Below, in pieces: positions 6,910 through 50,705 of a DNA stretch of 64,000 bases. Each line of letters begins with the position of its first letter. The first letter of the stretch is position 1. The notes below the pieces were generated by a model. That model saw nothing but the letters and a program-made list of their open reading frames with translations. It searched no databases and was not told the origin of the DNA. This stretch comes from Planctomycetota bacterium (GTDB lineage Bacteria > Planctomycetota > JBFWNO01): contig JBFWNO010000003.1 in assembly GCA_050251015.1 (NCBI GenBank), forward strand, positions 1,411-65,410, given 5' to 3'. The position numbers were made by a program, and so were the translations under genes.

Positions 6910-6970
6910 GCTCCCCCTGTGGCCGGATTATAGGCATCACCCCCCACCCCGTTGCAAGATATAAGCACTG

Positions 6971-8961: not shown

Positions 8962-9114
8962 AAATCCTCCATACACCACACATTTACCGCACATATTTAG
9001 TATAGCGACGCTGAGGACATCTTCAATACATACGCAAAATGCTTGTTTTTAAGTTAAAAACTCACTATTTCATCAACCCACACGTTTGTCCACTCGATAG
9101 CTATACTGTCGGGC

Positions 9115-9417: not shown

Positions 9418-9469
9418 CGCGGGCGCGTCTGGGTGACGGCAATGTGCGGATGAATGTGCCGTACCCGGC

Positions 9470-10063: not shown

Positions 10064-10075
10064 TATGCCTATGGG

Positions 10076-11393: not shown

Positions 11394-14300
11394 TCAATAC
11401 TGCATCTTGTGAAGGTGATTAACGCGCCCCTTGAAGTATTTAAGATTAAGAGCTTTGGTCACGTGTATCACAGCGACAGTGTGAGTGTATTTTCCCCTGT
11501 TGGGGTAAATGTCCCTTTCATAACGCTGGAGGTTGATTAGAACGAGTAGATCCTTATTACATTTCACGAGGATACTCTTCAAGACAGAAGGGGTACATAA
11601 GAGACGCATCCCGAAATCGTCTTCATCTTCCCTATCCTGGCCTTCCCTGCCCCATGCCTGCGCGGACAAAACTGGACGACCACGGGCATCCTTCCAGATA
11701 CGGCCAAATGAGTCACCTTTTGATAGAGAGCAGAATTCAACAAAGTCATGTGCCAAATACGATCTGGAATTGGCCGTTGACACACTATATGGATCGTGCT
11801 TATCGAGACGAGCATCATCGGACGGACAAACAATCCAAGGCGTGTATTCACTCATATTGCCTCTAAAATATTCTCTATTTTCTTCGTCCACTTGTAAGCA
11901 TGGAACACAAACTACCATCGGCTCTTCGCAAACCAACTTGCGCGCGAGAACGGCTGCTCTTTGCGGAGAAACCAAGGCAGATGAAATACGAACTTTGACG
12001 TTGTCTGCGGATGTCCATTGGCCATCGACAATAAGACCTTTGCTCATTCGCGGTCCACTGTTGATTAGCGTCAGAATTTTCTCGCGATCGCCAATAATCG
12101 ACAGCTCATTTTTCTTTCTTTCAAGGAGAATTTTCGCTGTATCGAGTGGCGTTCTGTCAGTCCCATCCGACAACCAGAGTCCATCATTGCTCGTGAGGGT
12201 ATATCGACCAAACCACTCCCTCCAAGGATCGCCATCATGCCAGCTATCATCTGTAACTGGATAATCCTTAAGCAACCTGCCTGCAACAATGAAGAGAGCA
12301 TGCCAGCCTAGTTGCTGTCCATACGTTTGATATCGGGTAGTCATCTCGTAGGAAGCATGCCTGTATCGAGACTCTCGCCCAGGTGAGTCATGCATAGCTT
12401 CGACCTTCGGATCGATTGCATGGACAATTTCCGCCATCTGATCGACGACTTTCCAGCACTGTTGGCCGAAGACACGTGCAAGATTGTCTACGTCATACTT
12501 GTGAAAGTCGTAGTCGAGATGGAACTGGAAGGCCGGTTCCGGCTGAGATTTTGGGCGGCCTGAGTAGGCGTCTTCGTTTTTCCGAAGCCTCTTCTTGAGA
12601 CGCCCGTGCGGAGAGCGGTCAGTATCGCGTACACATGTCGCTTGCTTGGCAGGAAGATTCAAATGCCCAGCACTCATACATATATGTAACGCCTGGCCGG
12701 CAAAGTGCCGCATTAGGACATGCGGATCAATATCATTAACTACAATTTGCAGTAGCTGATCCCTATAGCGCGCAATCTGAGCTGGAAAGTCCGTCGCTAT
12801 CCTAGCCAACGCAATGAGCAGCCATAGACGAGCATGCATGTAGAAGAACGGAAGCTCTTTCGCTTGAAAGGGCCCCGCACCTACCTCACTGAACTTTTCA
12901 ACAACTTTATCAATAACATCCCAGCGTCCGAATTTTGCAAATGTTCGGAGACTGTGGGCTGCGCGCCACCGATCAACGGCGTATGGAGAACCGAAGACGC
13001 GCCAAATTAGGCCTGCACTGATTTTCTGAATATCACCCGGCGGATAATGCCCCTCTGTCCAAGGACCATCGACGACACTATCCACCAGTCTCGCAGCCTC
13101 ACTAGAAAGGAGTCGTCTTAATGCGAGCTGTCCCTGTCCTGCATCAGACTCAGGACAGATAAGCGTTGCAAAGGCGAGCCAGACTGAGCCTGGAACCATA
13201 TTGTCCAAACGGGCACAGTTTTTGATGAGTTTAATAATTAGATCTGGAATCGGAACACCTGTAAGATCAGATATCTCCTTGATGTTGGAGCCGGACAAAC
13301 GGCCATCCACAACAAGATCATGGGAATGCGCATTGATGAGAATGTCGGCCAGATCCGCATAAATATCTGTAAGCGCAACTGATGATCTATTCCATGCTTT
13401 TTTAGCATCCTTTAACTCGACCAACTTCCAGTAGAAAAAGAGGTTATCAAGCGTTGCAATATTATGAATATATTTCGAGCGGAAACGATATGGAACCTTC
13501 CCTCTTAGATTTACAAAGAAGTCGCCTTTCAAATCGCACATGTTTCCAAGCGCATTAAACTCATCGATTGCTTTGATTAAAGATGATTCATCTATAGGAT
13601 CTGTCTTCACCACAATATGTTTGAGATCCTTCCGATTTTTTTTTCCACGCTCGTCCATTACTTTACGATTTTTGAGATTAGGAAAACTTGCATGGTTATT
13701 TCGATCATTACGCATATCCCTCACCTTGGCGTAGCAAGCGCGCGCTGCTACAAGATGTCTTGCAACTTCTGAAGACGGTCCAAGGGCTTCGTGCGCAAGG
13801 TTACCGAGCGTTTCGAATGTATCATCCATCGCAACATCGGGGTTATTGTCCTGGAACTGGTCAATCAATTCCTCGATAACCACTGGGTCAGGACCCGCCT
13901 GCTGACGCAACGCTTGCGCGAACTCCTTCGAGCTAGAAAAATAATGCTCAACCGGATTGGCAAGGCGGTTTAGAGCAAGCGCGACTTTCGCATCAATTTT
14001 ATTATCTCTAAGCAAGCCAATTAGATATGGAAGCAAGGTAACATTCAGGGCAATCTTTGACCTATCGTCCCAACGACTCAGCTTTGCTAACCCCCTCGGG
14101 CCGGCAACCCTAGATAAACCATGTCCATACGCGCCCCAGAAGAATTTCTCAGGCTCTTCCCCAATATTAAGTTCACAGATATTTGACAACGTGTGGAAAT
14201 CATGCTCGTCAAGCTCACTACCCTTCATTTGGGAGGCGAATAGCAAAAGTTCATTAGTAAACTGGTAGTCTCCCGAACCTATCGCGTCCATCTGCTCGAG

Positions 14301-17300
14301 CCCATAACGAAAGTACTTCGATGCTTCGCATATGCTTGCTGGCAACATGGCACGACCCAACGCTCCGAATAAAGATGCTCTATAGCCGACTTCGTCTTCC
14401 CTTTCGATCAAGGCGCGAACCTTTATCGCTTGTTCACCAGCCAGCGTTTGCAGCATCCTTTTTTGCGCAAGGATCGCAACGATATGTATGCGGCTATGCG
14501 CTCCAATTTTCTGGTTATCGATGCTGGACAATAGACGTTTTACAGTAGCCAGCTTAAGCTCAGGACGGAACCAGAAGGCAAAGAGCATAATATCGAAGCC
14601 CAACAAACGAAAGAAATGTTCAATCTCGTCAGGACGGTACGAATCGACGCTTCTGGAAGATTTCTCCCATGCTTTGATCAGCTCGTCAAATGTCTTGTCT
14701 ATTAAACTTGGACGCGATCCGAGAACCGCCGAAAACGCCCTCGTTAGTGCAAGTAACGGCTCAAGCCGCTGGCTTAAAAACCGCCCTGCACTATGATGAG
14801 ACTCATTGCTAAGGGAGTTGGATTTGGCGCCCTGTCCTTCGTCTTTCGTTTTGTTATTTAAGCATTTATCTATTCTTTCTTTTGCCTTGTCACGGAACTC
14901 CTTCCCTGCAACATCTTTTCCAATGCGAGAACAAATATGCACAAGCTCTTGTGGCAGTAAATCCCTGTCATGCACGGGTTGATTCTTAATAGCAGCGTGT
15001 AGCGCGATTCGAAACAAGAAGGGGAAAACATCGCGGTTATAGGAAACATCACGGAAAGCCCAAAGGTTAGGGCGCTTATGTGGAACACGCATGGATATTG
15101 CCATCGCCTCCGACTTCATGCCCAACGACAACGCGATCGCTGCAGACTTGCGCAACCCATCCTGTAGCTCATTTGAACGACTTCGATGAATGGCATCGCG
15201 AAGGTCGAGATTTGCTGCACCCTTGCAACGATTTGCAAGCTTGGCTACCAAGTCTTTGCATTTCGCCTTCGAAAGTTCGTTGAATGATAGGGCGGCGGCC
15301 AGAACACCAATGCTTGAGAGCACACTAACGAATTTGTTATGCCGCAATGATTGTTTAGAACGAAGTGACTGCGAGAGCCTCAAATAACCAAATATGTGTT
15401 CGCAGATCTCATATGCATACCAGTCTTTCCACCGATTTAGATATTGCATGGCATCCACGCAACGACCCTGCGAGATCATAAAGAAGGGTATCGCAGCGAT
15501 GTCTGTGGGCTCGGGGATATGATCGCGAGGCTCGTGATCACGGCTTTCGCGTCTGTAATGTTCGATCCATTCATAGCCCAAGTGAAAATGACGGGATGCT
15601 TCATCAGAGTCGCCAGAAAGCGTGTTGACTATGGCAAGACGCGTATGACGGGCTCCCCGCCAACCAGTTTTTGTCTCAAAAAGACGCCTCATCGCATCCA
15701 TGTCCTGGGCAGCCACAATGAGATCTGGATGATCGCGAATATAATCCCTGCCGCGCTCATCAACTGCCGCGATAGTTGAAAGTTCGAGCAACAATCGGAC
15801 AAGACTGTTGTAATCTTTTTTTTGGGCGGCGTGAAGTGTTGCCGATTTAAGTCTGGAATATCGCACATTCCTCTTGCCGATAGCACTCGTGATGGTCGAT
15901 GGTATACGATCATCAAAGGCAAGTTTGATAAGTTGTTCTCCATCGTTAAGTTGAAGTAAGAGTCCGGGTAACGCACGTGCTGCGTAGACAGAAACATCCT
16001 GTCGTTCAAATAGTTTAGTGGCCACATGGAGAATTGCCTCGCGTGATGACACATACCGTTTATTGACAAATGTCTCAGTCGGTTCATCACGAAACATTAG
16101 CCCCTGGTTTGTGCGCTCCAGAAACGGCGACAAATCCGAAGAAAAGCTTTTGATCGCGTCGAGTGCCATGGTATGCGCACCGGCATATTCTTCAAGGGGC
16201 ACTGGCGGCGGAAGTACGGCAAGACCGGCAAGGAACGCATTTATATCTTTCTCCTGGCATCCTCGCAGATTTGCGGCGGAAAGCGCGTCAGTAATTCTTT
16301 TCTGAATAAGATCTTCTAGTTCAATTTTTTTATCGATCTCGGACTGATCCAGCACCCCGCCGCCTTCTTTGAGGAGATATTCAAGCACGCGTGGATTCCC
16401 ACCTGAGCGAGCATGCGCAACATTGATTTTTATCTCTGAGGGATTTTTTAGCCTTGTGCGCATAAATGATGCTGTTTCACTCTTGCTAAAAGGTCGCAGC
16501 TCATACTCATCGTATTTGGCATGGGTTACCGGCTTGCGTTCAGGACGACAGGAAATTATGAGTTTGACTCCAGGTATTGGCTCGGCGTCCAAGCATTCAA
16601 GGAATTTAATTGGGAAACAGTCTTCACTACGCCGACGCGCAATAATATCTGCATTATCTATCGCATCGATTAGCAGAGCTAGCTTCTTCCCTGGTGTATA
16701 TCTTCTTATCGTTTCAAGAGACTGAATAAGACGCCTTCTGAAGGTTTTTAGCAAGCCTTGTACATCTGGATTGTCAGGCAAAATAGGATCACAAAAGCCA
16801 CGAAAGGCTAGAGTATTCGCTATATGGATTACCCCTTTCTTTGGCAGGTGACGGGAATCCTCGGGAGACCGGTAAGCACCTCCACCAAAGCAATCGAAAA
16901 AAACAACCTCATAATTGTTAGCCAACACTGTTTCGAGCGTACTCATAAAAACGGTCTTGCCGACTCCACCAGTTGCATGAATAAGTAGTGGCATGGCCGT
17001 ATTCGAAACACGAGCAATGACTTCAGCAAGCTGTTCACGCTCAAGAATATTGCCGACTTTAGGGAGCGTGGATTCACACGGCAATAAATCCTTCGGATCG
17101 CCGATTTGTAATGCACCCAGTATGTCAGTGCGCGTTATCAAGTTTCTGCCTGTGCCCGCACAACCAGCCTTTTCACGTACGAGCTCCCTCAGTTTTCCAA
17201 GTCTTGCTGAAGCATTGGCGTCATATGTAGCAGACCAGTCAATGAGCATACGCGTCAGTTCATTCTTTGTTTCACGAAGGTTGCCAGATCGGCCAAAAAG

Positions 17301-17843
17301 TTTGAACTTCCGTACGAATGACGCCAGAGGCTTGCCACTTAAACCAGAATATTTCTCAAGCTGCTTTGCCTGTCGCTCAGCATCACCCTTGCATGACGAA
17401 CAAGAAGCCAAGCCATCCATTGCCTCTATGAGTGACTTACTGATCGGCTGGTTTGTAACGAGCTGAAAATCGAGCTTTGCTTCAACGGCTTTAACACCGT
17501 ATTTCCTCATGTAATCTACATATGTCTTGCCGAACTTCACCACAGTATTCTTCGCATCAGCCGCCCGAAATTCCTTGTCTTCGCTAGCAATCGAGTACTT
17601 GAACTGGACAATGGTCGTCTTATTAGCCTGTTTAAATTCAGGGTTGCCTCCGAAATACTTTGTTAGGTCAGCGATATCGATAGTTTGTGTGGATGCATGG
17701 ATCTGGTCAGCTGTTGACAATCCCTCCACGGCAATGGCTGTCAGATCGCTTTCTGGCAAAAGGAGTTGCATGGCCATTCGTGCCGTCCACGCTTCATGAA
17801 ATTCGTGACCGTCACGAGATGCTCTGACTTTTTCTACTCTCAT
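11394..17843 (-). CDS. giant Cap4/DUF4297-like nuclease - STAND NTPase - long C-terminal sensor protein (Avs/NLR-like defence candidate)
   Basis: Uninterrupted 2,149-aa ORF, visibly AT-rich. N-terminus GHEFHEAWTARMAMQLL...IAVEGL...IDIADL...IVQFKYS (PD-(D/E)xK of Cap4 type). Walker A LLIHATGGVGKT, Walker B LALLIDAIDNAD, ISCRPE, LRPFSKSE, GGNPRVL (GxP-like). About 1,650 further aa carry no nameable motif. Confidence 0.85.
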   Translation of the reverse strand: MRVEKVRASRDGHEFHEAWTARMAMQLLLPESDLTAIAVEGLSTADQIHASTQTIDIADLTKYFGGNPEFKQANKTTIVQFKYSIASEDKEFRAADAKNTVVKFGKTYVDYMRKYGVKAVEAKLDFQLVTNQPISKSLIEAMDGLASCSSCKGDAERQAKQLEKYSGLSGKPLASFVRKFKLFGRSGNLRETKNELTRMLIDWSATYDANASARLGKLRELVREKAGCAGTGRNLITRTDILGALQIGDPKDLLPCESTLPKVGNILEREQLAEVIARVSNTAMPLLIHATGGVGKTVFMSTLETVLANNYEVVFFDCFGGGAYRSPEDSRHLPKKGVIHIANTLAFRGFCDPILPDNPDVQGLLKTFRRRLIQSLETIRRYTPGKKLALLIDAIDNADIIARRRSEDCFPIKFLECLDAEPIPGVKLIISCRPERKPVTHAKYDEYELRPFSKSETASFMRTRLKNPSEIKINVAHARSGGNPRVLEYLLKEGGGVLDQSEIDKKIELEDLIQKRITDALSAANLRGCQEKDINAFLAGLAVLPPPVPLEEYAGAHTMALDAIKSFSSDLSPFLERTNQGLMFRDEPTETFVNKRYVSSREAILHVATKLFERQDVSVYAARALPGLLLQLNDGEQLIKLAFDDRIPSTITSAIGKRNVRYSRLKSATLHAAQKKDYNSLVRLLLELSTIAAVDERGRDYIRDHPDLIVAAQDMDAMRRLFETKTGWRGARHTRLAIVNTLSGDSDEASRHFHLGYEWIEHYRRESRDHEPRDHIPEPTDIAAIPFFMISQGRCVDAMQYLNRWKDWYAYEICEHIFGYLRLSQSLRSKQSLRHNKFVSVLSSIGVLAAALSFNELSKAKCKDLVAKLANRCKGAANLDLRDAIHRSRSNELQDGLRKSAAIALSLGMKSEAMAISMRVPHKRPNLWAFRDVSYNRDVFPFLFRIALHAAIKNQPVHDRDLLPQELVHICSRIGKDVAGKEFRDKAKERIDKCLNNKTKDEGQGAKSNSLSNESHHSAGRFLSQRLEPLLALTRAFSAVLGSRPSLIDKTFDELIKAWEKSSRSVDSYRPDEIEHFFRLLGFDIMLFAFWFRPELKLATVKRLLSSIDNQKIGAHSRIHIVAILAQKRMLQTLAGEQAIKVRALIEREDEVGYRASLFGALGRAMLPASICEASKYFRYGLEQMDAIGSGDYQFTNELLLFASQMKGSELDEHDFHTLSNICELNIGEEPEKFFWGAYGHGLSRVAGPRGLAKLSRWDDRSKIALNVTLLPYLIGLLRDNKIDAKVALALNRLANPVEHYFSSSKEFAQALRQQAGPDPVVIEELIDQFQDNNPDVAMDDTFETLGNLAHEALGPSSEVARHLVAARACYAKVRDMRNDRNNHASFPNLKNRKVMDERGKKNRKDLKHIVVKTDPIDESSLIKAIDEFNALGNMCDLKGDFFVNLRGKVPYRFRSKYIHNIATLDNLFFYWKLVELKDAKKAWNRSSVALTDIYADLADILINAHSHDLVVDGRLSGSNIKEISDLTGVPIPDLIIKLIKNCARLDNMVPGSVWLAFATLICPESDAGQGQLALRRLLSSEAARLVDSVVDGPWTEGHYPPGDIQKISAGLIWRVFGSPYAVDRWRAAHSLRTFAKFGRWDVIDKVVEKFSEVGAGPFQAKELPFFYMHARLWLLIALARIATDFPAQIARYRDQLLQIVVNDIDPHVLMRHFAGQALHICMSAGHLNLPAKQATCVRDTDRSPHGRLKKRLRKNEDAYSGRPKSQPEPAFQFHLDYDFHKYDVDNLARVFGQQCWKVVDQMAEIVHAIDPKVEAMHDSPGRESRYRHASYEMTTRYQTYGQQLGWHALFIVAGRLLKDYPVTDDSWHDGDPWREWFGRYTLTSNDGLWLSDGTDRTPLDTAKILLERKKNELSIIGDREKILTLINSGPRMSKGLIVDGQWTSADNVKVRISSALVSPQRAAVLARKLVCEEPMVVCVPCLQVDEENREYFRGNMSEYTPWIVCPSDDARLDKHDPYSVSTANSRSYLAHDFVEFCSLSKGDSFGRIWKDARGRPVLSAQAWGREGQDREDEDDFGMRLLCTPSVLKSILVKCNKDLLVLINLQRYERDIYPNRGKYTHTVAVIHVTKALNLKYFKGRVNHLHKMQY

Positions 17844-18015
17844 TTGAATTCGTGAATCAGTCTCGAATTCCGCCCAATGTACGGTTCACAAATATATTTC
17901 CAGAAATCACAAGGCATAGTAGGCACCTCCTCGGATCGTGATTGCCAACTTATTGAGTCATACATCGCAACCCGCCGCAACCGGTTATCAACCTGTATCT
18001 TCGCATGGCTACATT

Positions 18016-20562
18016 TCATTCCTTCGCCACCACCGTGTCATACAGCCCATAAGTCCTGAGTCCCTCATGGCTCTCGATGCCAGTGTAGCGCAGTGACGCG
18101 TCTTCGTACCGTCGGAACGCGAATACTGCCTGGTTCATCTGCTCGGTGTTGAAGACCTTGAGTCGCACGAGCAGGTGGAAGTCCTTAACCGCCAGCCCAG
18201 TGACGGCCAGAAACAGATCTGGTTCCAGCTTGGTGATCACGTCTTGGAGTGTGTTCTCGCGGAAATCTGTCAGGTACATGAACGCGGGGATCCGCGTTGC
18301 GAACTTGATCAGCTTCTCCTGCACAAGCTTGCGCTTGGACTTATACTCCTTTTCCTCCTCGGTGAGCTGCTTCTTCTGCTTGTCGGTCAACTCCTTGTCT
18401 CTGCCCTTGTTCTTGAGCTCCTTGACCTTGTCGCTCTTGTTGATGATGGTCTCGATGATGTTGTCGCCAAGCGCCCGCCATCCCTCAATGCGCTCAACGG
18501 CGGCCATCGCCTCAGGGTTGTCCAAGATGCGGCGTAGGGTTTCGTTATCCACATTTACGAGCAGTGCACTCTCCCATTTGCGGGCCAGCAGCGTGGCCGA
18601 GGTGCCAGCCATCGCGATATCGAGGATGCCACCCGCATCGATCTGCGTCATGTTTGCGCCGTCGTAGGCCAGCACCGGCAGGAATGACACGAGATCCTTG
18701 ACGGCATTCTCGGGGTTGGGCTCGGTGGGCGACAGGCCGATCCCGTACTCAGAGATCTGCCGTAGCGCACGCGTGGGCGCGAAGTCAAAAACGAAGCAGA
18801 CAGGCTTGAGCACCTCCTCCTCGTTCGGATTGTCGCCATGAGGGTTCTTAATGGCCCATGGCGACTGAACGCGGAATGCGGCCTGAAAGTAGGTTTCCGG
18901 TGACTTGAGGTTGCGTAGCATCAGGATTGATGACCACTGCGGCACCGTCACTCCGGTGGCGAGCTTTCCGCACGAGAGCGTGATGGTCTTGGTCTCGAAT
19001 CCGCTACCGAGGGCTTTGCGCACGGGCGGCAACGCCTCCAATCCAATGCCAGCCGAGGCGCCAGCGGCGATGATCACCTGATAGTCGCGCCAGAAGGTGT
19101 TGTGCCTCTCTGCCAGCAGGTTTGCCATCGCGTGGCAAGCCGCGACATTAGGGAGGAACCAAAAGGAGTGCTGAAGGTAGGGTAACAGGCGCGCGTCCGA
19201 ATATGGAAATGGCGGCCGAGTGCCCGTCTTCAGATGTTCGGCTGACTTAGGAGCATATCCTCCCCGAATGATCTCCAGCCACTTCTGCACATCGCTTGCG
19301 TGTTTGAACCGCGCCTTAGTCCCTGTGCCCGATGCCTCGAAGAAGGCGTTGAGATCGAACTCGTCGAACTCCCCAGCGCTTGCAATTGCCAGAAGTTCAT
19401 CCGGCATCTGGTAGGTGAGCAGGCGCATCTGTGGCAGTGCACCATAGGGGTTCCGGTTGCCGGGATTCCTGGCGGCGAATTCCTCCTTGGCACGCTGCTC
19501 ATCGGTGTAGGTCCAGTTGTAAATCTGTTCTTCGATAAATTCGCCGGTGGCCAACGCTTTGAACGGTGTTCCAGATAGGTAGAGACATGCCTTGGTCGTG
19601 ATGGGCAGGAACTCGGTTTCCCTTTCCAATGGTTCCTGCAAATCGGCGATTTTCTCTTTCTGGCCCTTGGCATCTTCCAACCGGGCCTCCACCCTGGAGA
19701 TCGCCTCTTCTTCGTCCTCGAATAGTTCCTTCGCACTATCCCGCCATGCCCCGAAGTGGTACTCATCGAAAACCACAAGGTCCCAATTCACCTCATGGAG
19801 CCATTCATTCTTGGCCTTGATGTTCCCGGCCTTGTCACGGCCGAGCAGGTCCTGGAAAGAGCCGAAATAGACGAGCGGGTTTTTCGAGGAGGCCTTTGTT
19901 GGGTCGCCACCTGAAGCTTTCGACAGGTATTGCCAGCCATCAAAATCCACATGGGATTTGAGGTCAATCTCCCACGCATCCTCAACGGCGGGTTTGAAAG
20001 TAACCACAAGCACTCGCTTGGCGCCGAGCTTTTTCGCGAGTTGGTAGGTGGTGAAGGTCTTGCCGAAGCGCATCTTCGCGTTCCAGAGGAACCGAGGGAC
20101 CGCATGCCTGTCCTCCTTCCAGATGGAATGGAAGTAAGCGTGCGTCTTGTTCACAGCCTCGATTTGCTCGCGGCGCATCGGGAAGGTCTCGTGATGCGTG
20201 CCGGTGAACATCTTGCCACAGCGCAGTTCGGCGAGCACGGTCTTCACGTCATTGACCGAGCAACGCATCCATTCCAGCTCGGCATTTTCAAATTTCTTCT
20301 TAGCGAGTATGGCGCGCACCTGGTGATCTGTGATGATCGTGCCATCGTCGCGCTCGGCTGGCTCGTCAAGCTCGATCTTGTAGTTCTTGATCGCGGCAGT
20401 CTTGAGCTGCTCGGCAACACGCTGCTTCACGCTCCGCGTGGTTTGACCAACTTTGAGTAGCCCCGCATGCGCCCTGTCGTCAATCGAATATGCGTAGATG
20501 CGTGGACGGGCTTCCGGTTTGGGCGCAAGGATTTCTTCTATGCGCTTACTCATCACCCTCAC
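18016..20562 (-). CDS. T5orf172/GIY-YIG-like domain fused to SF2 (DEAH, type III Res-like) helicase
   Basis: 848 aa. N-terminus RIYAYSIDDRAHAGLLKVGQTTRSVKQRVAEQL...ELEWMRCS matches the T5orf172/MUG113 pattern. Helicase motifs: MRFGKTFT (I), LVVFDEYHFGAW (II), LYLSGTPF (III), QAAFRVQSP (VI). K/E-rich coiled C-terminal region. 17-nt overlap with the upstream MTase gene. Confidence 0.85.
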   Translation of the reverse strand: MRVMSKRIEEILAPKPEARPRIYAYSIDDRAHAGLLKVGQTTRSVKQRVAEQLKTAAIKNYKIELDEPAERDDGTIITDHQVRAILAKKKFENAELEWMRCSVNDVKTVLAELRCGKMFTGTHHETFPMRREQIEAVNKTHAYFHSIWKEDRHAVPRFLWNAKMRFGKTFTTYQLAKKLGAKRVLVVTFKPAVEDAWEIDLKSHVDFDGWQYLSKASGGDPTKASSKNPLVYFGSFQDLLGRDKAGNIKAKNEWLHEVNWDLVVFDEYHFGAWRDSAKELFEDEEEAISRVEARLEDAKGQKEKIADLQEPLERETEFLPITTKACLYLSGTPFKALATGEFIEEQIYNWTYTDEQRAKEEFAARNPGNRNPYGALPQMRLLTYQMPDELLAIASAGEFDEFDLNAFFEASGTGTKARFKHASDVQKWLEIIRGGYAPKSAEHLKTGTRPPFPYSDARLLPYLQHSFWFLPNVAACHAMANLLAERHNTFWRDYQVIIAAGASAGIGLEALPPVRKALGSGFETKTITLSCGKLATGVTVPQWSSILMLRNLKSPETYFQAAFRVQSPWAIKNPHGDNPNEEEVLKPVCFVFDFAPTRALRQISEYGIGLSPTEPNPENAVKDLVSFLPVLAYDGANMTQIDAGGILDIAMAGTSATLLARKWESALLVNVDNETLRRILDNPEAMAAVERIEGWRALGDNIIETIINKSDKVKELKNKGRDKELTDKQKKQLTEEEKEYKSKRKLVQEKLIKFATRIPAFMYLTDFRENTLQDVITKLEPDLFLAVTGLAVKDFHLLVRLKVFNTEQMNQAVFAFRRYEDASLRYTGIESHEGLRTYGLYDTVVAKE

Positions 20563-22126
20563 CCATTGGTCGTATCATACTCTCAATGAATGCGACTTCG
20601 CTCTTCGTAATGCCATACTTCGAGTACAGTAGATCGTCAGTCCAAGTTCTGCTCCAGGACTGCTGTGGCACCCATGTGTAAGTCGATCGCAGGGCATGCT
20701 GGGTGATTTTTCTCAATGACACGAGAAAACGGAATAGGCGAGTCCGATAGTAGCTACTGAAACTCTGAGCTGACCTCTCGGATTTGAATGGAGCCACAAC
20801 AAGGTATGATTGAGTGCACGCTGATGGGGGCGCGGCTACAATCTCTTTGCCTAGGATTTGATGCGGGAAAGTCTCACCAGCCCCATAAGCTTCGGGCACT
20901 AGAACCTTCCATGTATCGATAGTGTTTGCATTCTTGCGAATGTCTCCACGCTTCATGAAACCGGTTGTTCGCTTGCCCTTACTGATCAGGTGGAGCTCAA
21001 TCTTGCCGCTCCCACCTTTCTCGGTCCAGCCCTCGAAGTTCGTCGCGATACCGAATGGCGTATCACCTGACACGAGCTCAAAGACCGAAGGCTCCTTCTT
21101 GGAGAGAACCTTCCTCAGGATTCCAAGTGCGCGTTCGTCACGAACGAAAACATCAAACTCGCCTAGCTGCCGATTGCGTTGAAAATGTCTTTCACCTCCG
21201 GCCATGCGTGTGACATTACAGGTCCCGTTGTATGCGCCATCCCAAAGGAAGTAGCACACGCCACCCTTGATTTGAACGCCGGGGAAGGCATCGCCAGAAT
21301 CGGGAAAGTCCGTGAGGCTACGGAGATGGCCTTCGCTGAGCATCTGCGCCCTGAACTCATCGAGCCCTCGCCCGCCCGCCATCCATCGCGAAGGCGTGAC
21401 AAAAGAGGCAAACCTCGGTTCAAGTTTGAGTGCCTGCTGGACAAAAAGATGGTAGATCGAGGAGTCGCTCGAACCCCCCGCGCCGCCAGTCATTTGGTAC
21501 GGTGGATTGCCGATGATCACATCGAATTGCATATTACCTCCAAACAACTCGGCTAGCCGAGCCTTTATATCGCTGGTGTGAATGAAAGCGTAGGCATGGG
21601 TTTCAAGTCCCTCCTCACGATCAAAAATCGACCGGGGCGCTCCGCAGTACCCACACTTCGCACCATCCCATGTGTGCTCCATGTGTTTGAACCAAATATT
21701 CCCATCATTGCTGGCAAACGACTTGGCAATGGAGTGCTTACCTTTGGCGTTCTTCGAACAATACACGCTCCGTCGCGCCAGCAGGCTCGTGAGGTGCGTG
21801 ATACCGATGCCGAACACCTGTTTTGTTAGAATGTGATTCACGCGTTCATCAAGGTTGGGTATTGCCTTGGCCAAGCCCTTGGTAAGGCGGCTGGTGATCT
21901 CGCGCAGGAACACGCCTGTCTTCGTACACGGATCAAGAAACTTCACCGTCTTGTCCGCCCATATGTTCGCGCCGCCTTTGTCTGCCGCCCATGCCTCGGC
22001 CAGCGTGTCCAGCATCTGGTTTGCAAATTCCGGTGGCGTGAAAACCTCGTCGTTGGAGAGGTTCGCAATACACGTCAGCACATCCGGGTTGCGGCCACGG
22101 AGCGCAAAGCCAACCTTGGCGTTCAT
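20546..22126 (-). CDS. Eco57I-like N6-adenine DNA methyltransferase with C-terminal target-recognition-like region
   Basis: 526 aa. Motif X EVFTPPEFANQML, degenerate motif I FLDPCTKTGVFL, catalytic motif IV FDVIIGNPPYQM. C-terminal TPSRWMAGGRGLDEFR...GVCYFLWD resembles RM-type methylases. Confidence 0.9.
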   Translation of the reverse strand: MNAKVGFALRGRNPDVLTCIANLSNDEVFTPPEFANQMLDTLAEAWAADKGGANIWADKTVKFLDPCTKTGVFLREITSRLTKGLAKAIPNLDERVNHILTKQVFGIGITHLTSLLARRSVYCSKNAKGKHSIAKSFASNDGNIWFKHMEHTWDGAKCGYCGAPRSIFDREEGLETHAYAFIHTSDIKARLAELFGGNMQFDVIIGNPPYQMTGGAGGSSDSSIYHLFVQQALKLEPRFASFVTPSRWMAGGRGLDEFRAQMLSEGHLRSLTDFPDSGDAFPGVQIKGGVCYFLWDGAYNGTCNVTRMAGGERHFQRNRQLGEFDVFVRDERALGILRKVLSKKEPSVFELVSGDTPFGIATNFEGWTEKGGSGKIELHLISKGKRTTGFMKRGDIRKNANTIDTWKVLVPEAYGAGETFPHQILGKEIVAAPPSACTQSYLVVAPFKSERSAQSFSSYYRTRLFRFLVSLRKITQHALRSTYTWVPQQSWSRTWTDDLLYSKYGITKSEVAFIESMIRPMGEGDE

Positions 22127-22812
22127 TCGGCCACCTTTGTGGTGTCGCCGGACGCGGCGGCGGCCAGCTCACTCACCGACATGGGTGGATAGGTCCTCTC
22201 TGGCGTGAAGATCTTGTGCTTGCCAAGAGGTGCGAAAAGCGGGTGCTGTTCGTTGAAGGACGACATGTGGGTAAGGATATCCAAAAGGAAATCGCGGCGC
22301 TGGAACTTCCCCTTGCCCAGGTAGCCCCACTCGGCAAAAGTGATCGGGCGGTCGTCATGGGTGAGCATCTTTAGCGCGTCACCGTGAACGAGGTTCAGGG
22401 ACAGAACACAGAACGCGGCGCGATAGGTTTCGTCCGACTCATCAACATTCAGGTATTCGGCAAGAATCTTCAGCAGATTCGCACGGCACTCAGCGATGTT
22501 GTCGGTCAATAGCTCAATGCCATAGATGCACATCAGCGCGAGGAGCGCATAGTGCCGCCGCTCGAATTCGGACTTGCCGTACTTGATTTCCACAGCGGCG
22601 AGCTTCCGTTTCAAAATCTTCACAAGAAAGTTGCCACTGCCGCACGCTGGCTCCAGAAATCGGGAATCGATGCGCTCCGTCTCGCCCTTCACCAAGTCGA
22701 GCATCGCTTCGACCATCCACTCCGGGGTGAAGACCTCGCCATGGTCGGAAACGCGTTGCCTGGATTTGACATAATTTTCAGAATGGCGCATGCGGTGACA
22801 TACTTCCATCAT
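22123..22812 (-). CDS. methyltransferase N-terminal half-like protein (SAM-binding motifs X and I, no NPPY)
   Basis: 229 aa. EVFTPEWMVEAML (motif X), canonical FLEPACGSGNFL (motif I), YGIELLTDNIAECRANL. No (N/D)PPY motif anywhere. ATGA overlap (22123-22126) with the downstream full-length MTase. Confidence 0.7.
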   Translation of the reverse strand: MMEVCHRMRHSENYVKSRQRVSDHGEVFTPEWMVEAMLDLVKGETERIDSRFLEPACGSGNFLVKILKRKLAAVEIKYGKSEFERRHYALLALMCIYGIELLTDNIAECRANLLKILAEYLNVDESDETYRAAFCVLSLNLVHGDALKMLTHDDRPITFAEWGYLGKGKFQRRDFLLDILTHMSSFNEQHPLFAPLGKHKIFTPERTYPPMSVSELAAAASGDTTKVAE

Positions 22813-22870
22813 GCATTGCTGGGAAATGCCGGCATGGCGACATTCCTCGTGCTAATGTACCCATTAGACC

Positions 22871-23218
22871 TCAACCATCCTTCTTGAAGTAATACCCGAC
22901 AATAATTCCAGCGAGCACCCCGGTTGTTCCATCACTGATCAGATTCATATAGGCCAGCGTCCCAATACAGGCAAAAGACAAGATCAACATGATCCCATTG
23001 TGCCAGTACTTTGCCTTCCGGGCTTCTGGAGTATTGCCAAATAAATTGGCGGCGTGTTTTAAGAAGGACTCCATGAATGCCTTGACTTCAGCATTGCGCA
23101 TCAACTCCAGCCAAGCCGTGAGATTGTCCGCTGTGGTGGAATTGGTAGTCCGCTCATTTTTTTCGCTAATTGAACGCTGAGCGGATGTTTGATCAGTCTG
23201 CTCTTCTCTGCTCATCAA
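22871..23218 (-). CDS. small membrane protein (two C-terminal TM helices)
   Basis: 115 aa, AT-rich. C-terminus has WHNGIMLILSFACIGTLAYMNLI and GVLAGIIVGYYF. ATGA overlap with the upstream 101-aa gene. Confidence 0.5.
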   Translation of the reverse strand: MMSREEQTDQTSAQRSISEKNERTTNSTTADNLTAWLELMRNAEVKAFMESFLKHAANLFGNTPEARKAKYWHNGIMLILSFACIGTLAYMNLISDGTTGVLAGIIVGYYFKKDG

Positions 23219-23520
23219 ACGCCCCGGGATTTAAGGTCTAGCTCAGCTTCCGCAGGAACTAATATTTCCTCATCACCATCAATTGACCATTCTCTACTAT
23301 GAAGCACCTCACAGGTAACAAGGGACAGATCGTCCCAAGGGAAGTAGGGAACAGGCTTGCCAAATACCATTGGCGCTGCAATTCCAAATCCCATAGATGC
23401 GCGAGCTCTTGCCGACAATTCATCCTCCGCTCGGATAATCACCTCTCCGTAGTGGGTGCTGGCACGCCAGTTGTTATGGTTTTGATTCGATGGTGTAAGT
23501 TTCCAAATCTTCATGGCCAT
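23215..23520 (-). CDS. hypothetical small soluble protein
   Basis: 101-aa ORF translationally coupled (23215-23218) to the small membrane protein. No known motif. Confidence 0.45.
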   Translation of the reverse strand: MAMKIWKLTPSNQNHNNWRASTHYGEVIIRAEDELSARARASMGFGIAAPMVFGKPVPYFPWDDLSLVTCEVLHSREWSIDGDEEILVPAEAELDLKSRGV

Positions 23521-23567: not shown

Positions 23568-23933
23568 TTACACCTCAAACTCCAAAAACACACTCACCCC
23601 ATCTAAATTCCCCAACGGCACCCAATTCCCACTCCCCGAGTACCCCGCCACCCCGACAATCCCCCCTGGATTCTTCGTCCCGCCATCCGTGACGAGCTGA
23701 TTGTTGAAGATGATCATGTGGGGCGCACCCCCATTCTGCATCCCCAGATTCACGGGATAGGGCTCAAAGGTTCCATCTGGTGTAGTAGGCGTGGTGTTGG
23801 CGGGGTTGAGGGCTCGCATGAAATTTGGAAAGGAGGAATGACAGACCACAAATTTCCCCTGGAAACTGATGGCAGGACTTAGTGTGTCGGTAATCCCGCT
23901 GGTCCGAAGAGCCACAAACGCCGAGCCAGCCAA
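23568..23933 (-). pseudogene. truncated paralogue (C-terminal about 120 aa) of the prophage tail-fibre-like gene 27054..28211
   Basis: LNPANTTPTTPDGTFEPYPV / GGTKNPGGIVGVAGYSGSGNWVPLG aligns with LNPSNTTPLTPDGTLEPYPV / SGTKKPGNVAGVATYSGSGNWVKLG of the 385-aa protein. The whole N-terminal beta-propeller-like part is missing. Confidence 0.6.
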
Positions 23934-24027
23934 GCCCTTTTTACATCGATGCGCAGCTTCCGGCGCTCACCGCCGAACCCACCGGCGCGCGCCTGATTGA
24001 CTGACACGCAGCAAGATTTATCAACTT

Positions 24028-25182
24028 CTACGTCAGTTCATCCGGATCATGAACGATTACGACTCCGTTGGGCAAGGCGTATCCTTTGCCTTCGAGCGAC
24101 GCTCTCTTGTCCCGAAAACCCCTGAGTGCTCTCAAAATTTCCGCCTTTAGAGAAGAACATGCATTTCCCAATAATGCCTTTCCTATCGGGCCATACAACC
24201 CAATCACGTCACCGAATGGTGTGATACCCAATGGCAATATCGACAACTGCCCCACTTGAGGCAACCGTGTGTTTTCGCCGAGTTCTGAAAATGGCGAGTG
24301 CATCTTTCGTCCAGCAACCAGTTGATCAGCAAGGATGTCATGCCCCATGAACTGAAGTGCTTTCGCGTAGGCGAGACGTATTACCATGTCCGATTCTGGA
24401 TTCTTCTCTTGCCCCCGTGATCCATCTGGGTCCTTGATTATCGTTGTGGTTTCGGATTTGGGATGAATTCCTTGGATACAGAAGTGTGTCCCTATGACAA
24501 CGCGACTACATGAGTTTCTGAGCAGCAGGTTTACTGGCTCGACATTCTGTACTTGCTTCCAACCTTCAGGATCAATTCTTTTCGTGATGCTTTTTTTGGT
24601 CCCGGTTGCGCCTTTGCTCTCAGCAAGTACGGCTTTCCCATCCGCACCTTCACAAAAATAGTCCGGCCTCGCCTCAGAAGTTGCATTGGCAACATATACC
24701 AACTCTCTGCGCTTGATACAGGCATAGGCGTCTGCGATGTGCTCTAGATCGAAGTGCTCGCGAAGGAGATAACATGAGATTCCTGCGGCTACTTCCTCCG
24801 ATGCGACAGCCATAAGCCGTGGATCTTTATCTTGGACACCTTCGTAAAATCGCAAGTCCGGATGTGATCCCGCAAAATCGCCACCATAACGAAACAGAGC
24901 AAACCACGATCTCGGATCCCAGGACGTGGTTGCGAGAGTCGTGGCTATGCCCGTTTCAATAAGCACGCGATGTAGGCTGACCTGGATTCTCCCGTTACTA
25001 GGTAGCGGTCGCTGCAACGCGAACGCTGGCGGCATGACCTCAACGATCCATTCACGCAAATCTGAGGGGCTTGGCGCGAACAGAATAGGGAACGGCGAGA
25101 GGCGGTGTCGTACCCGCCAGAATGGGCACCAGTGCTCAGCCAGTCGGGTATTGCGATTCAATATTGAAGGCGGAATCTTCAA
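24028..25182 (-). CDS. hypothetical protein with PD-(D/E)xK-like core (orphan defence-cassette candidate)
   Basis: 384-aa ORF (TTG start in the track, true start uncertain), AT-richer than the flanks. Candidate nuclease core EARPDYFCEGADGKAVLAESKGATG (PD...ExK). Flanked on both sides by tail-fibre 3' remnants. Confidence 0.55.
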   Translation of the reverse strand: MKIPPSILNRNTRLAEHWCPFWRVRHRLSPFPILFAPSPSDLREWIVEVMPPAFALQRPLPSNGRIQVSLHRVLIETGIATTLATTSWDPRSWFALFRYGGDFAGSHPDLRFYEGVQDKDPRLMAVASEEVAAGISCYLLREHFDLEHIADAYACIKRRELVYVANATSEARPDYFCEGADGKAVLAESKGATGTKKSITKRIDPEGWKQVQNVEPVNLLLRNSCSRVVIGTHFCIQGIHPKSETTTIIKDPDGSRGQEKNPESDMVIRLAYAKALQFMGHDILADQLVAGRKMHSPFSELGENTRLPQVGQLSILPLGITPFGDVIGLYGPIGKALLGNACSSLKAEILRALRGFRDKRASLEGKGYALPNGVVIVHDPDELT

Positions 25183-25259
25183 AATCTACTTGTTTCCTTT
25201 GCTAAAATCTTTCGTGACCATATTTCGACTTGCCCTCAATCGTAGTGATTTAGAGATCC

Positions 25260-25372
25260 TTACACTACAAACTTCACAAACGGTTCCGCCCCATCCAAAC
25301 TCATCAACGATACCCAATTTTCAGCTTCCAGAATAGGCCGCCCCCCCACCGGCGCATGGCCATACCAGATTG
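25260..25372 (-). pseudogene. decayed, frameshifted remnant of the tail-fibre gene 3' end (copy 2)
   Basis: Minus strand reads ...AGGGAAYSGS then, after a 1-nt frame break, NWVSLMSLDGAEPFVKFVV*. This matches VGVAGYSGSGNWVPLGNLDGVSVFLEFEV* of 23568..23933. It begins directly after the Mrr stop codon. Confidence 0.45.
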
Positions 25373-25374
25373 GT

Positions 25375-26418
25375 CTATATCTCCTTGACCTTCGTTGATG
25401 CCTGACCCTCCGGCTCCTCCAGTTCAATCAAGAAAAATGGCCGCTTGACGACCCCGATCTCATGCGCCACAAGGAGCCGCGCCAGTTGCTCCCCATTCAT
25501 CAGCCCCACAGGCACTGCATCAGACCGTTCGGCCTCCCGCTTCGCCCCGGGGCTGAAATCACTCGTCGTGATGATGAGCCCCTGCTCGTGCGTTCCAAGA
25601 CTACCACGCACCTGTTGCACCACTGGGGACTGGACATTGGCCTTCCACTTTTTTGCCTGTATGGCCATGCGGGTGCGGATCGTCCCGCCGACGACGAGAG
25701 TGGCCCGCACATCGATACCCCCATCGCCGCTCTTGCGGTACACCTCGATGTCATCGAAACCCATCTCGGCCAGAAGGCGCCCGATCAGCACTTCGAACTG
25801 GCCCCAGCTCAGCGCCAGCAGACGGGCCAACAGCGCCTTCCTGGCGCGCTGATTCTGCTGATCGATCTCTAAGACCAGACCCTGGCCCATCCATTTACTC
25901 AGCCCAAACATGCCGCGCGCATGTTGCACAAAGAGGGGTCCCTCCCCCTGGCGCTGGGCCCGCTTGCTTGCGGTATAAAGCTGTGCGGCCATGGTTGCAT
26001 CCGGAGTTTTCCCCTGCGTGTCGAGCCAACCCAGTTTGAGAGCCTTGGCAGTGATGTCGCGGAAATGCATTGGCTTTTTGTTGCCGAACTGTTCAAGCAC
26101 CTTTTCAGCCGCCTTGAGGAAGGAATATGTTGTTGCCGACACCTTGGTCTTTGGTTCCACCGGTCGCTTGGATGATGAGGACGGCTTTGCTCCATTTTCA
26201 TGCAGGCCAAAGGTCTGTGAGGCCACAAGCACAAACGGCGACTTGTCACCACTCTTCTTGATGTCTGAGTAAAGCCGGGCACCGACGGTCGCGGCGGGGG
26301 TCTTTCCTTCGCTACGCCAAAGTCCTCCGGCCGTCATACGCTTGGTGATCTCCCTGGCGTGAAGGGGCTCACCGGCTTCCCGGAGGATCTGTACAGCGGC
26401 GGCACGGACATTCATCAT
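25375..26418 (-). CDS. Mrr-family type IV restriction endonuclease with two N-terminal HARE-HTH domains
   Basis: 347 aa. Two HARE-HTH units (GLWRSEGKTPAATVGARLYSDIKK...FVLVASQTFGL; GWLDTQGKTPDATMAAQLYTASKR...FVQHARGMFGL). C-terminal Mrr_cat core: FEVLIGRLLAEMGF...SGDGGIDVRA...MAIQAKKW...GLIITTSDFSPGA. Confidence 0.85.
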   Translation of the reverse strand: MMNVRAAAVQILREAGEPLHAREITKRMTAGGLWRSEGKTPAATVGARLYSDIKKSGDKSPFVLVASQTFGLHENGAKPSSSSKRPVEPKTKVSATTYSFLKAAEKVLEQFGNKKPMHFRDITAKALKLGWLDTQGKTPDATMAAQLYTASKRAQRQGEGPLFVQHARGMFGLSKWMGQGLVLEIDQQNQRARKALLARLLALSWGQFEVLIGRLLAEMGFDDIEVYRKSGDGGIDVRATLVVGGTIRTRMAIQAKKWKANVQSPVVQQVRGSLGTHEQGLIITTSDFSPGAKREAERSDAVPVGLMNGEQLARLLVAHEIGVVKRPFFLIELEEPEGQASTKVKEI

Positions 26419-26528
26419 TTTCCTGCTCCGATTTGCAAAAACACCCGGCAGATCCCTCTGAAAACAACAAGTGATGCCTCAAAGTTTATTACATGTGATC
26501 TGGAGCCACAAGCACCGCCTGCTTGGCA

Positions 26529-26858
26529 TCATGTGGGTGTAAGCTTGGTTAGGAGGCGGCGCAAGGCCAAGGCCGTGGCTTCATGCCTATCCGCCAGGAT
26601 AAGGATGCTGATGGGGGTTGCGGCTTCAATGGAAGGCAGGCCAAAGGGCCTGGTATGCCACTTGCCAGTGCGAGGATGCTTGTAGCGCACATCTACCAGA
26701 TCGCTACCTGCGAAACCTTCTCCAGGGCGACAGCACACCACACTCCCCACAATGTCTTTCGCGCCAAGGTGATAAGGGTTCAAACGGATCAACACCTTGT
26801 CACCCGGGGCGAAGAGGGGTTGGTGTTTTGCGATCCTTTTCTTCTTTTTCCGTGACAT
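26529..26858 (-). CDS. hypothetical small protein upstream of the Mrr gene
   Basis: Start chosen at MSRKKKKR (26858), preceded by AGGAGG. The longer ORF form (to 27023) would read through the fibre-remnant sequence. 109 aa, beta-rich, no known motif. Confidence 0.45.
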   Translation of the reverse strand: MSRKKKKRIAKHQPLFAPGDKVLIRLNPYHLGAKDIVGSVVCCRPGEGFAGSDLVDVRYKHPRTGKWHTRPFGLPSIEAATPISILILADRHEATALALRRLLTKLTPT

Positions 26859-26965
26859 GTCGACCTCCTGTATCGCGCAAGCCTGCGCCCTCACACTAGG
26901 GAGAAAGTTCTGCTCAAAAGCAAGGGAATTCACAGCACGATGGCGCCGCATTTCAGGTCGCACAT

Positions 26966-27053
26966 TCATATTGAAAACTCCACAAACGGCCCCGCCGCAT
27001 CCAGAATCTCCAATGTCGGCCAAACACGATCATCCCGATTGAAACACCCATCT
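26966..27053 (-). pseudogene. short remnant of the tail-fibre gene 3' end (copy 3), immediately downstream of the intact gene
   Basis: Minus strand 27022..26966 reads WPTLEILDAAGPFVEFSI*, alignable with W(V)PLGNLDGVSVFLEFEV* (23568 copy) and WVSLMSLDGAEPFVKFVV* (25260 copy). DNA repeat core: aaact(y)cacaaacgg..ccgcc.catcca. Confidence 0.45.
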
Positions 27054-28211
27054 TCACGGCACCACCAAAAACCTATTCGCAAATGTGATCGTTGGGGCCC
27101 CCAATTTCACCCAATTACCCGACCCCGAGTAGGTCGCCACACCCGCCACATTCCCGGGCTTTTTGGTGCCCGAGTCTGCCACAAGGTTTCCCTGATACAG
27201 GGCAATTTGCTCGGCCAGATACCCCGAGGACCCCCCGACACCCGTGTAAACAGGATAGGGCTCCAGGGTGCCATCAGGCGTGAGCGGCGTGGTGTTCGAT
27301 GGATTGAGCTTCTTGAGGCCATCGGGCAAGGCAATCATTTTGACGATGAGACTTCCCTGAAACTCCACCGCTGATGTGGGCCAGCTCGATGAACCCGCTG
27401 GTGTGATGCGCACCCGCAGGGGAGACACTGAGAGCCCGGCAATTTTTCCCAGGAAGAATCCGGGAGAGTTGAATATGGGATTGCCCACCGCGAGGAGATT
27501 GCCTTGATAGGTGCCGAAGGAATAGACCTCTGCTGATGAGCTGGGAGCCGGGGTGTAGGTGCACTGCGACCAGCTACTACCCCCATCGTATCGAGCCAGC
27601 AGGGCTTGGTTGATGCGGGTGCGGCCACCGACATAAAGACTGCCGCCGTGGATCGCGAAGGCGTTGATGCGCTTTGAGTCCCCTCCAGGAAGCACGATGG
27701 GAGTGCCCACACTGACAAAGGATGATCCATCCCAGGCGATCATGTTGCCGAGACTGGTGAGAGGGCCAGCCTGGGTGAAAGACCCGGCAATGAAAAGGAG
27801 CCCGGCGTGAGCCTTGAGCGCATAGCAGGTGGCGTTGAGGCCAGTGCCCAGGGCGGACCAGGTGTTGGTGATGAGGTCGAATCTTGCGATCCTCGAGGCG
27901 GAGACGAAACCGTTGGGACCGACGACACTGAAGTTTCCGCCGATGTAGAGGGCGTTCTGGAAAATTTCCATGGCGTAGATCGATCCGTTGATCTCGTTGA
28001 TGGAGTTGCCCGTTGTCCCCACGCGGTTCCACTGCGACCCATCAAAGCGCGCTAGGCGCGATTGGAATGAGGGGTTGCCTTCAAGGTTAAAAAAAGTGCC
28101 GGAGGCGAGAAGATTTCCAGACAAGCTGTCGCCACCTTCCAGGCCACGCGCCCCGAGAGCGCTTTCAAGAAAGACCCCGAGCTTGGAGCCATGGAATGAA
28201 TCGAAACTCAT
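27054..28211 (-). CDS. tail fibre / receptor-binding protein with beta-propeller-like repeats
   Basis: 385 aa, last gene of the tail module. Repeats of the type LARFDGSQWNRVG, IARFDLITNTWSALGTG, MIAWDGSSFVSVGT, LARYDGGSSWSQ with LYIGGNF/LYVGG. ATGA overlap with the upstream tail gene. Confidence 0.65.
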   Translation of the reverse strand: MSFDSFHGSKLGVFLESALGARGLEGGDSLSGNLLASGTFFNLEGNPSFQSRLARFDGSQWNRVGTTGNSINEINGSIYAMEIFQNALYIGGNFSVVGPNGFVSASRIARFDLITNTWSALGTGLNATCYALKAHAGLLFIAGSFTQAGPLTSLGNMIAWDGSSFVSVGTPIVLPGGDSKRINAFAIHGGSLYVGGRTRINQALLARYDGGSSWSQCTYTPAPSSSAEVYSFGTYQGNLLAVGNPIFNSPGFFLGKIAGLSVSPLRVRITPAGSSSWPTSAVEFQGSLIVKMIALPDGLKKLNPSNTTPLTPDGTLEPYPVYTGVGGSSGYLAEQIALYQGNLVADSGTKKPGNVAGVATYSGSGNWVKLGAPTITFANRFLVVP

Positions 28212-50675: not shown

Positions 50676-50705
50676 GTTTTCTCCTTGTGGTTGATGGTTA
50701 TTGGT

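Follow-up and report, generated by a model that had tools for sequence, protein, structure and literature searches.

Three fibre-gene 3' ends and their stacked defence cassettes behind the receptor-binding gene of a siphovirus-like prophage

Introduction

The window analysed here, a stretch of 64,000 nucleotides (nt) from a Planctomycetota bacterium (assembly GCA_050251015.1, contig JBFWNO010000003.1, positions 1,411 to 65,410), comprises nearly all of contig C3 in a genome of 2.88 Mb and 190 contigs, and carries a siphovirus-like prophage on its minus strand. This prophage extends from a serine integrase and a tRNA-Asp gene at ~54 kb to a receptor-binding fibre gene (27054–28211), its final structural gene, and all same-strand genes 3' of the fibre are accessory. 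Among them lie three partial copies of the fibre 3' end, here called remnants (or scars) i, ii and iii, each followed by its own cargo genes. How did one prophage come to carry several ends of its fibre gene? The initial annotation proposed that related phages had repeatedly integrated or recombined at this place and then decayed, leaving their fibre ends and terminal cargo, or that the fibre 3' end is a hotspot of cassette exchange. We consider it probable that recombination brought in new fibre alleles with their cargo in place of the resident fibre, the right-hand junction falling inside the resident fibre gene and the older cargo being kept and stacked.

Fibre 3' ends downstream of the intact fibre gene

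The fibre gene and its remnants, with protein lengths in amino acids (aa), are arranged as follows:

27054..28211, minus strand: intact putative receptor-binding/tail-fibre gene, 385 aa, which closes the tail module behind the tape-measure, 267-aa and 297-aa genes
27023..27053, minus strand: 31-nt spacer from the fibre stop codon to remnant i; the six codons upstream of the W codon show 4–5 identities in 18 nt, which is chance level
26966..27022, minus strand: remnant i, the last 18 codons and stop codon of an older fibre allele (WPTLEILDAAGPFVEFSI)
25260..~25352, minus strand: remnant ii, ~30 codons of a fibre 3' end with one 1-nt insertion
23568..23933 (DNA similarity to ~23935–23938), minus strand: remnant iii, an intact frame of 121 codons comprising the whole fibre C-terminal domain

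The intact fibre protein consists of a conserved N-terminal part of ~60 aa, a Rax2-like β-propeller at residues ~32–266 (Pfam Rax2, E 5.6e-6) and a rare C-terminal domain at residues 267–385. In the AF2 model the propeller is confident and the C-terminal domain, with pLDDT < 50, is unusable. The gene is complete, since it possesses its own diverged tail (WVKLGAPTITFANRFLVVP), similar in length to the tails of the remnants and one residue longer.

All three remnants are anchored at a stop codon and lie on the minus strand like the fibre gene, and their presence at the positions first annotated was confirmed by a tblastn search, a peptide scan and a repeat scan. Remnant iii, annotated as a 121-aa open reading frame (ORF) derived from the last third of the fibre, indeed aligns with fibre residues 267–371 (tblastn, 45.7% over 105 aa; E 3.6e-25 in the window, and 1.6e-23 when the whole genome of 2.88 Mb is searched). 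Remnant ii was correctly described as frameshifted: it reads AGGGAAYSGS, after which an extra T at ~25323 leads to an in-frame TGA, followed by NWVSLMSLDGAEPFVKFVV up to the stop codon (tail SLDGAEPFVKFVV). When the extra base is skipped, it is 61% identical to remnant iii over 28 aa (E = 1.9e-6 genome-wide) and 64% identical to the independent fibre of a related phage contig, L013, introduced below (E = 5e-9), and 44 of its last 60 nt are shared with remnant iii.

Remnant i (VWPTLEILDAAGPFVEFSI, with the tail LDAAGPFVEFSI) was evaluated in a six-frame scan of the genome, in which every 19-mer ending in a stop codon (72,765 in total) was scored against the tails of remnants ii and iii; it was the top non-self match (score 87, compared to 52 for the best unrelated peptide). 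Its DNA is identical to that of remnant ii at 40 of 60 nt. The DNA core reported as common to the two short remnants was recovered as a 29-nt stretch (26975–27003 in remnant i, 25269–25297 in remnant ii) with 25 identical positions. Of the interval 26966–27053 first assigned to remnant i, the part up to 27022 stands, and the remaining 27023–27053 is the spacer listed above. The top direct-repeat family of the region (D1 in the repeat scan) consists of the three 60-nt stop-anchored copies at 23568, 25260 and 26966. These are nearly evenly spaced (1692 and 1706 nt), which is probably a coincidence.

The copies are 46–73% alike, and their likeness stops at the stop codon, with nothing shared beyond it. 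In DNA they differ by 27–38% (identity 62–73%) and therefore represent distinct alleles from other phages rather than local duplicates. These alignments identify the remnants as genuine 3' ends of fibre genes, each from a different allele. A disabling lesion is found in remnant ii alone (the 1-nt insertion); remnant i is very short, and no decay by stop codon or frameshift was detected in remnant iii, the frame of which is intact. A frameshift common to remnants i and ii, as suggested by a MAFFT alignment, was rejected, as remnant i is at chance identity upstream of the W codon; a programmed frameshift fusing the fibre to remnant i was also rejected, as the product would gain ~27 unrelated residues. 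Terminator and promoter scans of the region gave background level only.

The remnants are present in independent assemblies of the reads as well. A Logan per-run contig of 12,082 nt from SRR27751816 covers window positions 35182–23101 and spans all three, and one from SRR27751815 covers positions 24869–23186; both are 100% identical to the window.

Cargo cassettes beyond the fibre stop codon

As the initial annotation had described, each remnant is followed by its own cargo, to which it is still joined at the stop codon:

25375..26864, minus strand: cassette 1, a 111-aa gene (26529–26864) and an Mrr-type type IV restriction enzyme (25375–26418)
24028..25182, minus strand: cassette 2, a 384-aa orphan gene with a GC content of 51%, compared to 58–62% in the phage
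11394..23520, minus strand: cassette 3, small genes of 101 aa and 115 aa, two methyltransferase ORFs, a helicase/T5orf172 protein and Avs3 (2,149 aa)

Counted from the fibre, the series reads scar i, the 111-aa gene with Mrr, scar ii, the 384-aa gene, scar iii, and the small genes with the restriction-modification (RM) genes and Avs3, which together form a stacked island of ~16 kb. Recognised anti-phage systems in this cargo are Avs3a, a type IIG-like RM system and the Mrr/type IV restriction enzyme. The Mrr-type enzyme contains two HARE-HTH domains (Pfam Mrr_cat 9e-28, HARE-HTH 7e-39) and was assigned by PADLOC to PDC-S02 / mREase_IV. In cassette 3, PADLOC reported Avs3a (2.5e-218), REase_MTase_IIG and MTase_II, and Pfam reported Eco57I, ResIII and T5orf172; the methyltransferase ORFs and the helicase/T5orf172 protein constitute the type IIG-like RM system. 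The genes of 111 aa (with AGGAGG 6 nt ahead of its ATG), 384 aa, 101 aa and 115 aa are without family assignment. The label of an orphan PD-(D/E)xK gene, first given to the 384-aa gene, was not borne out, as no family match was found in Pfam, PADLOC, PHROG or NCBIfam, and close relatives of the 384-aa and 111-aa genes were absent from IMG/VR. The GC content of the cargo is uneven (47–59%), compared to 58–62% in the tail genes. No integrase was found inside the cassettes, and no fragments of other phage genes were found between 6 and 27 kb.

The related phage contig L013

The origin of remnant iii was clarified by L013, a 10.3-kb Logan contig (SRR22387749) encoding a homologue of the 297-aa tail protein that is 80% identical in amino acids. 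The two phages are 77% identical in nucleotides over window 29469–28143, a span that reaches from the 267-aa gene into the first ~70 nt of the fibre gene. The L013 fibre is intact, with 391 aa, and is only 41% identical in amino acids to the window fibre, and its positions 2039–2407 correspond to window 23935–23567, i.e., to remnant iii (84.6% nt / 88% aa). Both junctions of this correspondence could be mapped: the left edge is sharp, and on the right the likeness is gone within 3 nt past the stop codon. Relative to an L013-like ancestor, the window thus shows a 4.2-kb substitution (23936–28142) replacing ~0.7 kb of propeller-coding sequence, and the left edge of remnant iii falls at the end of the confidently modelled propeller (residue 266/267).

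Beyond its fibre gene L013 carries a different cargo, comprising HsdM, a nucleotidyltransferase (NTase)-binding protein, an NTase-HsdS fusion, an ABC-3C system (CTD10-HNH, MC6, DUF2326) and HsdR. At L013 2468–10297, directly after the fibre gene, an NTase/substrate-binding pair and the ABC-3C system thus interrupt a type I RM operon. None of these cargo genes (type I RM, NTase/HEPN-like, ABC-3C) is present in the window, and no second tail copy was found in the 7.9 kb of visible L013 cargo. From the L013 alignment and this differing cargo it follows that remnant iii is the truncated C-terminal domain of an L013-type fibre, and that the fibre stop codon marks a boundary past which the defence cargo of related phages differs. 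The proposals that cargo had been stacked and that the fibre 3' end is a boundary of cassette exchange both hold: each remnant is a distinct allele joined to its own cargo, and in L013 the allele of remnant iii is intact and the cargo differs from 3 nt past the stop codon.

Remnant iii is truncated and undecayed, as indicated by a ratio of nonsynonymous to synonymous divergence (dN/dS) of 0.077 against L013 (dS 0.75, dN 0.058), compared to 0.127 for the flanking 297-aa gene, and by the lack of excess private amino-acid changes (two in remnant iii and four in L013, with the window fibre as outgroup). The initial description of three decayed copies therefore applies to remnant ii, with its disabling lesion, and not to remnant iii. 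The first 22 codons of remnant iii (window 23871–23935) differ from L013 at 11 positions and the other 99 codons at 5, which may reflect a variable linker or, near ISFQG, one more mosaic breakpoint.

Further relatives were scarce. The first fibre search returned β-propeller relatives only, and an exhaustive HMMER search of 1.8 billion representatives returned the window's own copies and two spurious repetitive proteins only. Pattern scans for the fibre C-terminal domain in IMG/VR and GTDB genomes gave no further copies, a word-index search with the C-domain of the L013 fibre gave nothing, and a stop-anchored tail scan of ~90 loci gave no fibre end other than that of L013 itself. Loci with distant relatives of the 297-aa tail protein (80 metagenome, 3 viral and 10 genomic) are without this fibre domain and uninformative on scars, and a generic self-similarity screen of distant loci detected paralogous arrays only. 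In one distant relative, L014 (JGI 3300023220, positions 6577–10155), a 190-aa fibre-like gene is followed by at least four opposite-strand paralogues that have 84–121-nt 3' repeats in common, and these may be a family of alternative fibre-related genes.

Probable replacement of fibre and cargo by recombination

The homology of the remnants, their truncation, the origin of scar iii, the differing cargo of L013 and the absence of other phage debris are observed. To account for them, we propose that fibre alleles in this phage group have been swapped by recombination. The left crossover would fall in the conserved tail genes or in the first ~70 nt of the fibre gene, and the incoming DNA would consist of a new fibre with its own downstream cargo. 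The right join would occur inside the resident fibre gene, short of the far end of the resident cargo, and may be non-homologous or involve very short homology. In this way the resident fibre would lose its 5' part while its 3' end and all its cargo stay, and repeated rounds would build the series of fibre, scar and cassette. The phage's own recombination module is a plausible agent and the predicted candidate engine of these exchanges:

49905..51509, minus strand: phage recombination module, a Sak4-like annealing protein (PHROG 124, 2e-45) and a DUF3799 PD-(D/E)xK exonuclease (Pfam 7.8e-26)

The 4.2-kb block at 23936–28142 may have arrived in a single recent event, with scars i and ii already inside it. 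Such an arrival, which fits the freshness of scar iii, would account for the pristine state of this outermost scar beside a frameshifted scar ii; selection on remnant iii would be the alternative. The island is presumably packaged with the phage genome.

Several observations weigh against this account, probable as we hold it to be. The comparison of different cargo at the same position was made with one close relative, L013, which informs scar iii only, and no intact fibre with a tail of the i type (LDAAGPFVEFSI) or the ii type (SLDGAEPFVKFVV) was found in our searches. All three right junctions lie in the last third of a 1.2-kb gene, and random illegitimate joining predicts less clustering. 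Homology-guided events are hinted at by the left edges of remnants i and ii, which coincide with or adjoin the most conserved motif (GYSGSGNW). Moreover, the order of the stack makes iii the oldest scar, yet it is the best preserved, a discrepancy that calls for a further assumption, either arrival as a block or selection on iii. Finally, the place of the island in the packaged genome is one that we infer, as the att sites of a serine integrase are visible only with an empty site, which the nearest genomes, related at phylum level only, do not offer.

Alternative explanations

Two other routes to the same arrangement were considered, both of them unlikely. The first concerns integration, for which the relevant features are found at the far end of the prophage:

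52449..54098, plus strand: large serine recombinase (PF00239, E 8.4e-20) in a 558-aa open frame, beside tRNA-Asp
54041–54117, minus strand: tRNA-Asp, abutting the serine recombinase

This recombinase, a protein of 549 aa, is probably the integrase of the prophage, and over its last ~19 codons the open frame overlaps the tRNA-Asp, which is on the opposite strand. Whole prophages may have integrated in tandem, or a single Campbell-type exchange may have taken place in the fibre gene, followed by deletion down to the fibre 3' end and the cargo. The same order of scars and cargo would result, and as the genome encodes four large serine recombinases, one of which is at this prophage, repeated integration is possible. 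However, this scenario requires three clean deletions of ~30 kb, each stopping inside the fibre gene, and it is at odds with the undecayed state of remnant iii. No fragment of another phage gene occurs at 6–27 kb, and neither att-like repeats nor additional copies of the tRNA-Asp end were found, although a long att repeat is not expected since the integrase is a serine recombinase. The contig's sole recombinase is this integrase, located 25 kb from the remnant copies, and no tyrosine integrase was found on the contig. It is because of the missing phage-gene fragments and att-like repeats in the island that recombinational replacement is favoured over the stacking of whole prophages, and that the first proposal of the initial annotation, integration of related phages followed by decay, did not find support.

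In the second route, also improbable in our judgement, the last ~60–90 nt of the fibre gene would serve as a portable homology arm. Cassettes bearing this arm, as circles or linear molecules, would recombine at the GYSGSGNW stretch with the help of Sak4 and the exonuclease, duplicating the tail. Cassettes 1 and 2 are indeed bracketed by the stop-anchored 60-nt direct repeats at their near-regular spacing, the left edges of remnants i and ii suit such an arm, L013 and the window carry different cargo behind the same fibre end, and the phage encodes both proteins. Against this, the flanking repeats have diverged (62–73% identity) beyond what a recent homologous insertion would allow, the length of remnant iii exceeds that of the other remnants fourfold, the interval from the fibre end to remnant i is without cargo, and L013 lacks a second tail copy in its visible cargo. 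A stronger form, which we regard as quite unlikely, is that the stop-proximal ~60 nt act as a homology arm making, together with Sak4 and the exonuclease, an integron-like array of phage-borne defence cassettes that would be gained or lost singly, and in which remnant iii is perhaps also kept as a working domain.

That remnant iii by itself is retained as an expressed and useful stand-alone domain of 121 aa, for example by interfering with related phages or by aiding fibre assembly, appears very unlikely. Its intact frame, its low dN/dS against the intact gene, the 95% identity of its last 99 residues despite a dS of 0.75 and its truncation point at the boundary between propeller and C-domain (fibre residue 267) are in agreement with retention, but a recent truncation predicts the low dN/dS equally, there is no convincing ribosome-binding site or promoter ahead of the remnant, and no precedent was found. 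Chance similarity or an assembly artefact is hardly credible, for although the DNA of remnant i, a very short sequence, gives only a marginal match when taken alone (E from 7e-4 to 0.47 with different scoring), the genome-wide peptide scan, the E-values of remnants ii and iii and the two independent per-run assemblies speak against it.

A number of known systems that rearrange fibre genes or duplicate gene ends were also excluded. An invertible, shufflon-type fibre switch (Gin, Cin, Rci) does not apply, as all copies are direct and no invertase is nearby. A diversity-generating retroelement was excluded because no RVT_1 match was found in the genome and the mismatches among the copies are of all kinds rather than adenine-specific. 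A role of the copies as gene-conversion donors was ruled out by their divergence. In tandem integrative elements with duplication of a gene 3' end at the att site, direct partial copies of the 3' end separate foreign blocks, as they do here. Unlike in those elements, the copies in the window are of unequal length (18, ~30 and 121 codons) and 62–73% identical, without a core of identity and without an integrase for each block, which does not agree with site-specific tandem integration.

Relation to known phage hotspots

Morons and lysogenic-conversion loci 3' of tail-fibre genes are a classic feature of lambdoid prophages. Such post-fibre cargo loci are said to have been treated by Juhala et al. 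in 2000 and Brussow et al. in 2004, and reportedly by Tobe et al. in 2006 as 'exchangeable effector loci'. By analogy, the island described here would resemble them in the position of its cargo at the prophage end, after the fibre and on the same strand, and in mosaic boundaries at gene ends, and differs in carrying defence systems, theirs being virulence effectors.

Another parallel is offered by mixed hotspots beside tail genes, which hold swaps of receptor-binding proteins (RBPs) as well as defence cargo (10.1101/2024.10.15.618418; PMC9122126). They include hotspots of P2-like phages, such as the Z/fun locus by the tail-fibre genes, with fibre swaps and defence cargo (Rousset et al. 2022, PMC9122126), and mixed hotspots of gut phages flanked by tail proteins (Egorov et al. 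2024, 10.1101/2024.10.15.618418). The window shares with these a fixed position by tail or fibre genes, varying anti-phage systems and RBP swapping at the same locus. In contrast to them, the phage here is siphovirus-like and unrelated, its host is uncultured and probably a planctomycete, its old cargo is stacked and not replaced, and three fibre 3' scars are present, which are absent from the descriptions in those studies. Phage recombinases are known to drive mosaicism through relaxed homologous or illegitimate recombination, and Rad52-like recombinases have been tested in E. coli phages (De Paepe et al. 2014, PMC3945230). In both cases exchange takes place between related temperate phages or prophages and an annealing protein is encoded, here a predicted Sak4-like one; in the window, however, the right-hand junctions look non-homologous.

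The case is thus one of known phage mosaicism at a tail-adjacent defence hotspot and involves no new mechanism. What sets it apart is the stacking of dated scars, together with the remoteness of the host lineage. The scars form a readable record of a temperate phage that changed its RBP several times and kept the defence systems it carried. Most hotspot studies see the replacement of cargo only, whereas here old cargo was retained and the island grew to ~16 kb. The pattern of tail-adjacent defence hotspots, known from enterobacterial and gut phages, thereby also reaches phages of a lineage that is uncultured and probably planctomycete. The exact breakpoints, at the stop codon and at the boundary between propeller and C-domain, could guide searches for the same signature elsewhere.

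Prophage, host and other accessory genes

The host of the prophage probably belongs to the Planctomycetota, because the named genomes with relatives of the 297-aa tail protein are almost all metagenome-assembled genomes of this phylum. The species representatives nearest to the source genome share only the phylum with it. After the integrase, the gene order of the prophage runs through the DUF3799 exonuclease, the Sak4-like annealing protein, a primase, a ParB-methylase, a terminase, a lambda-type portal, a protease-capsid fusion, a cement protein, a tail tube, the 773-aa tape-measure gene and the 267-aa and 297-aa tail genes, and is closed by the 385-aa β-propeller protein in the receptor-binding position.

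The GC content drops to 50% between the portal and the terminase (39720–41356, plus strand), where two plus-strand ORFs occur, one for a 314-aa protein with a terminal SEC-C motif and one for a 247-aa orphan. The segment resembles a second accessory insertion, placed within the structural module. At 44657–44998 (plus strand) a frame resembles the N-terminal HARE-HTH of the island Mrr gene (42% over 57 aa, E 9e-10). The surrounding region, of unusually high AT skew, is otherwise taken as a 338-aa ORF on the minus strand.

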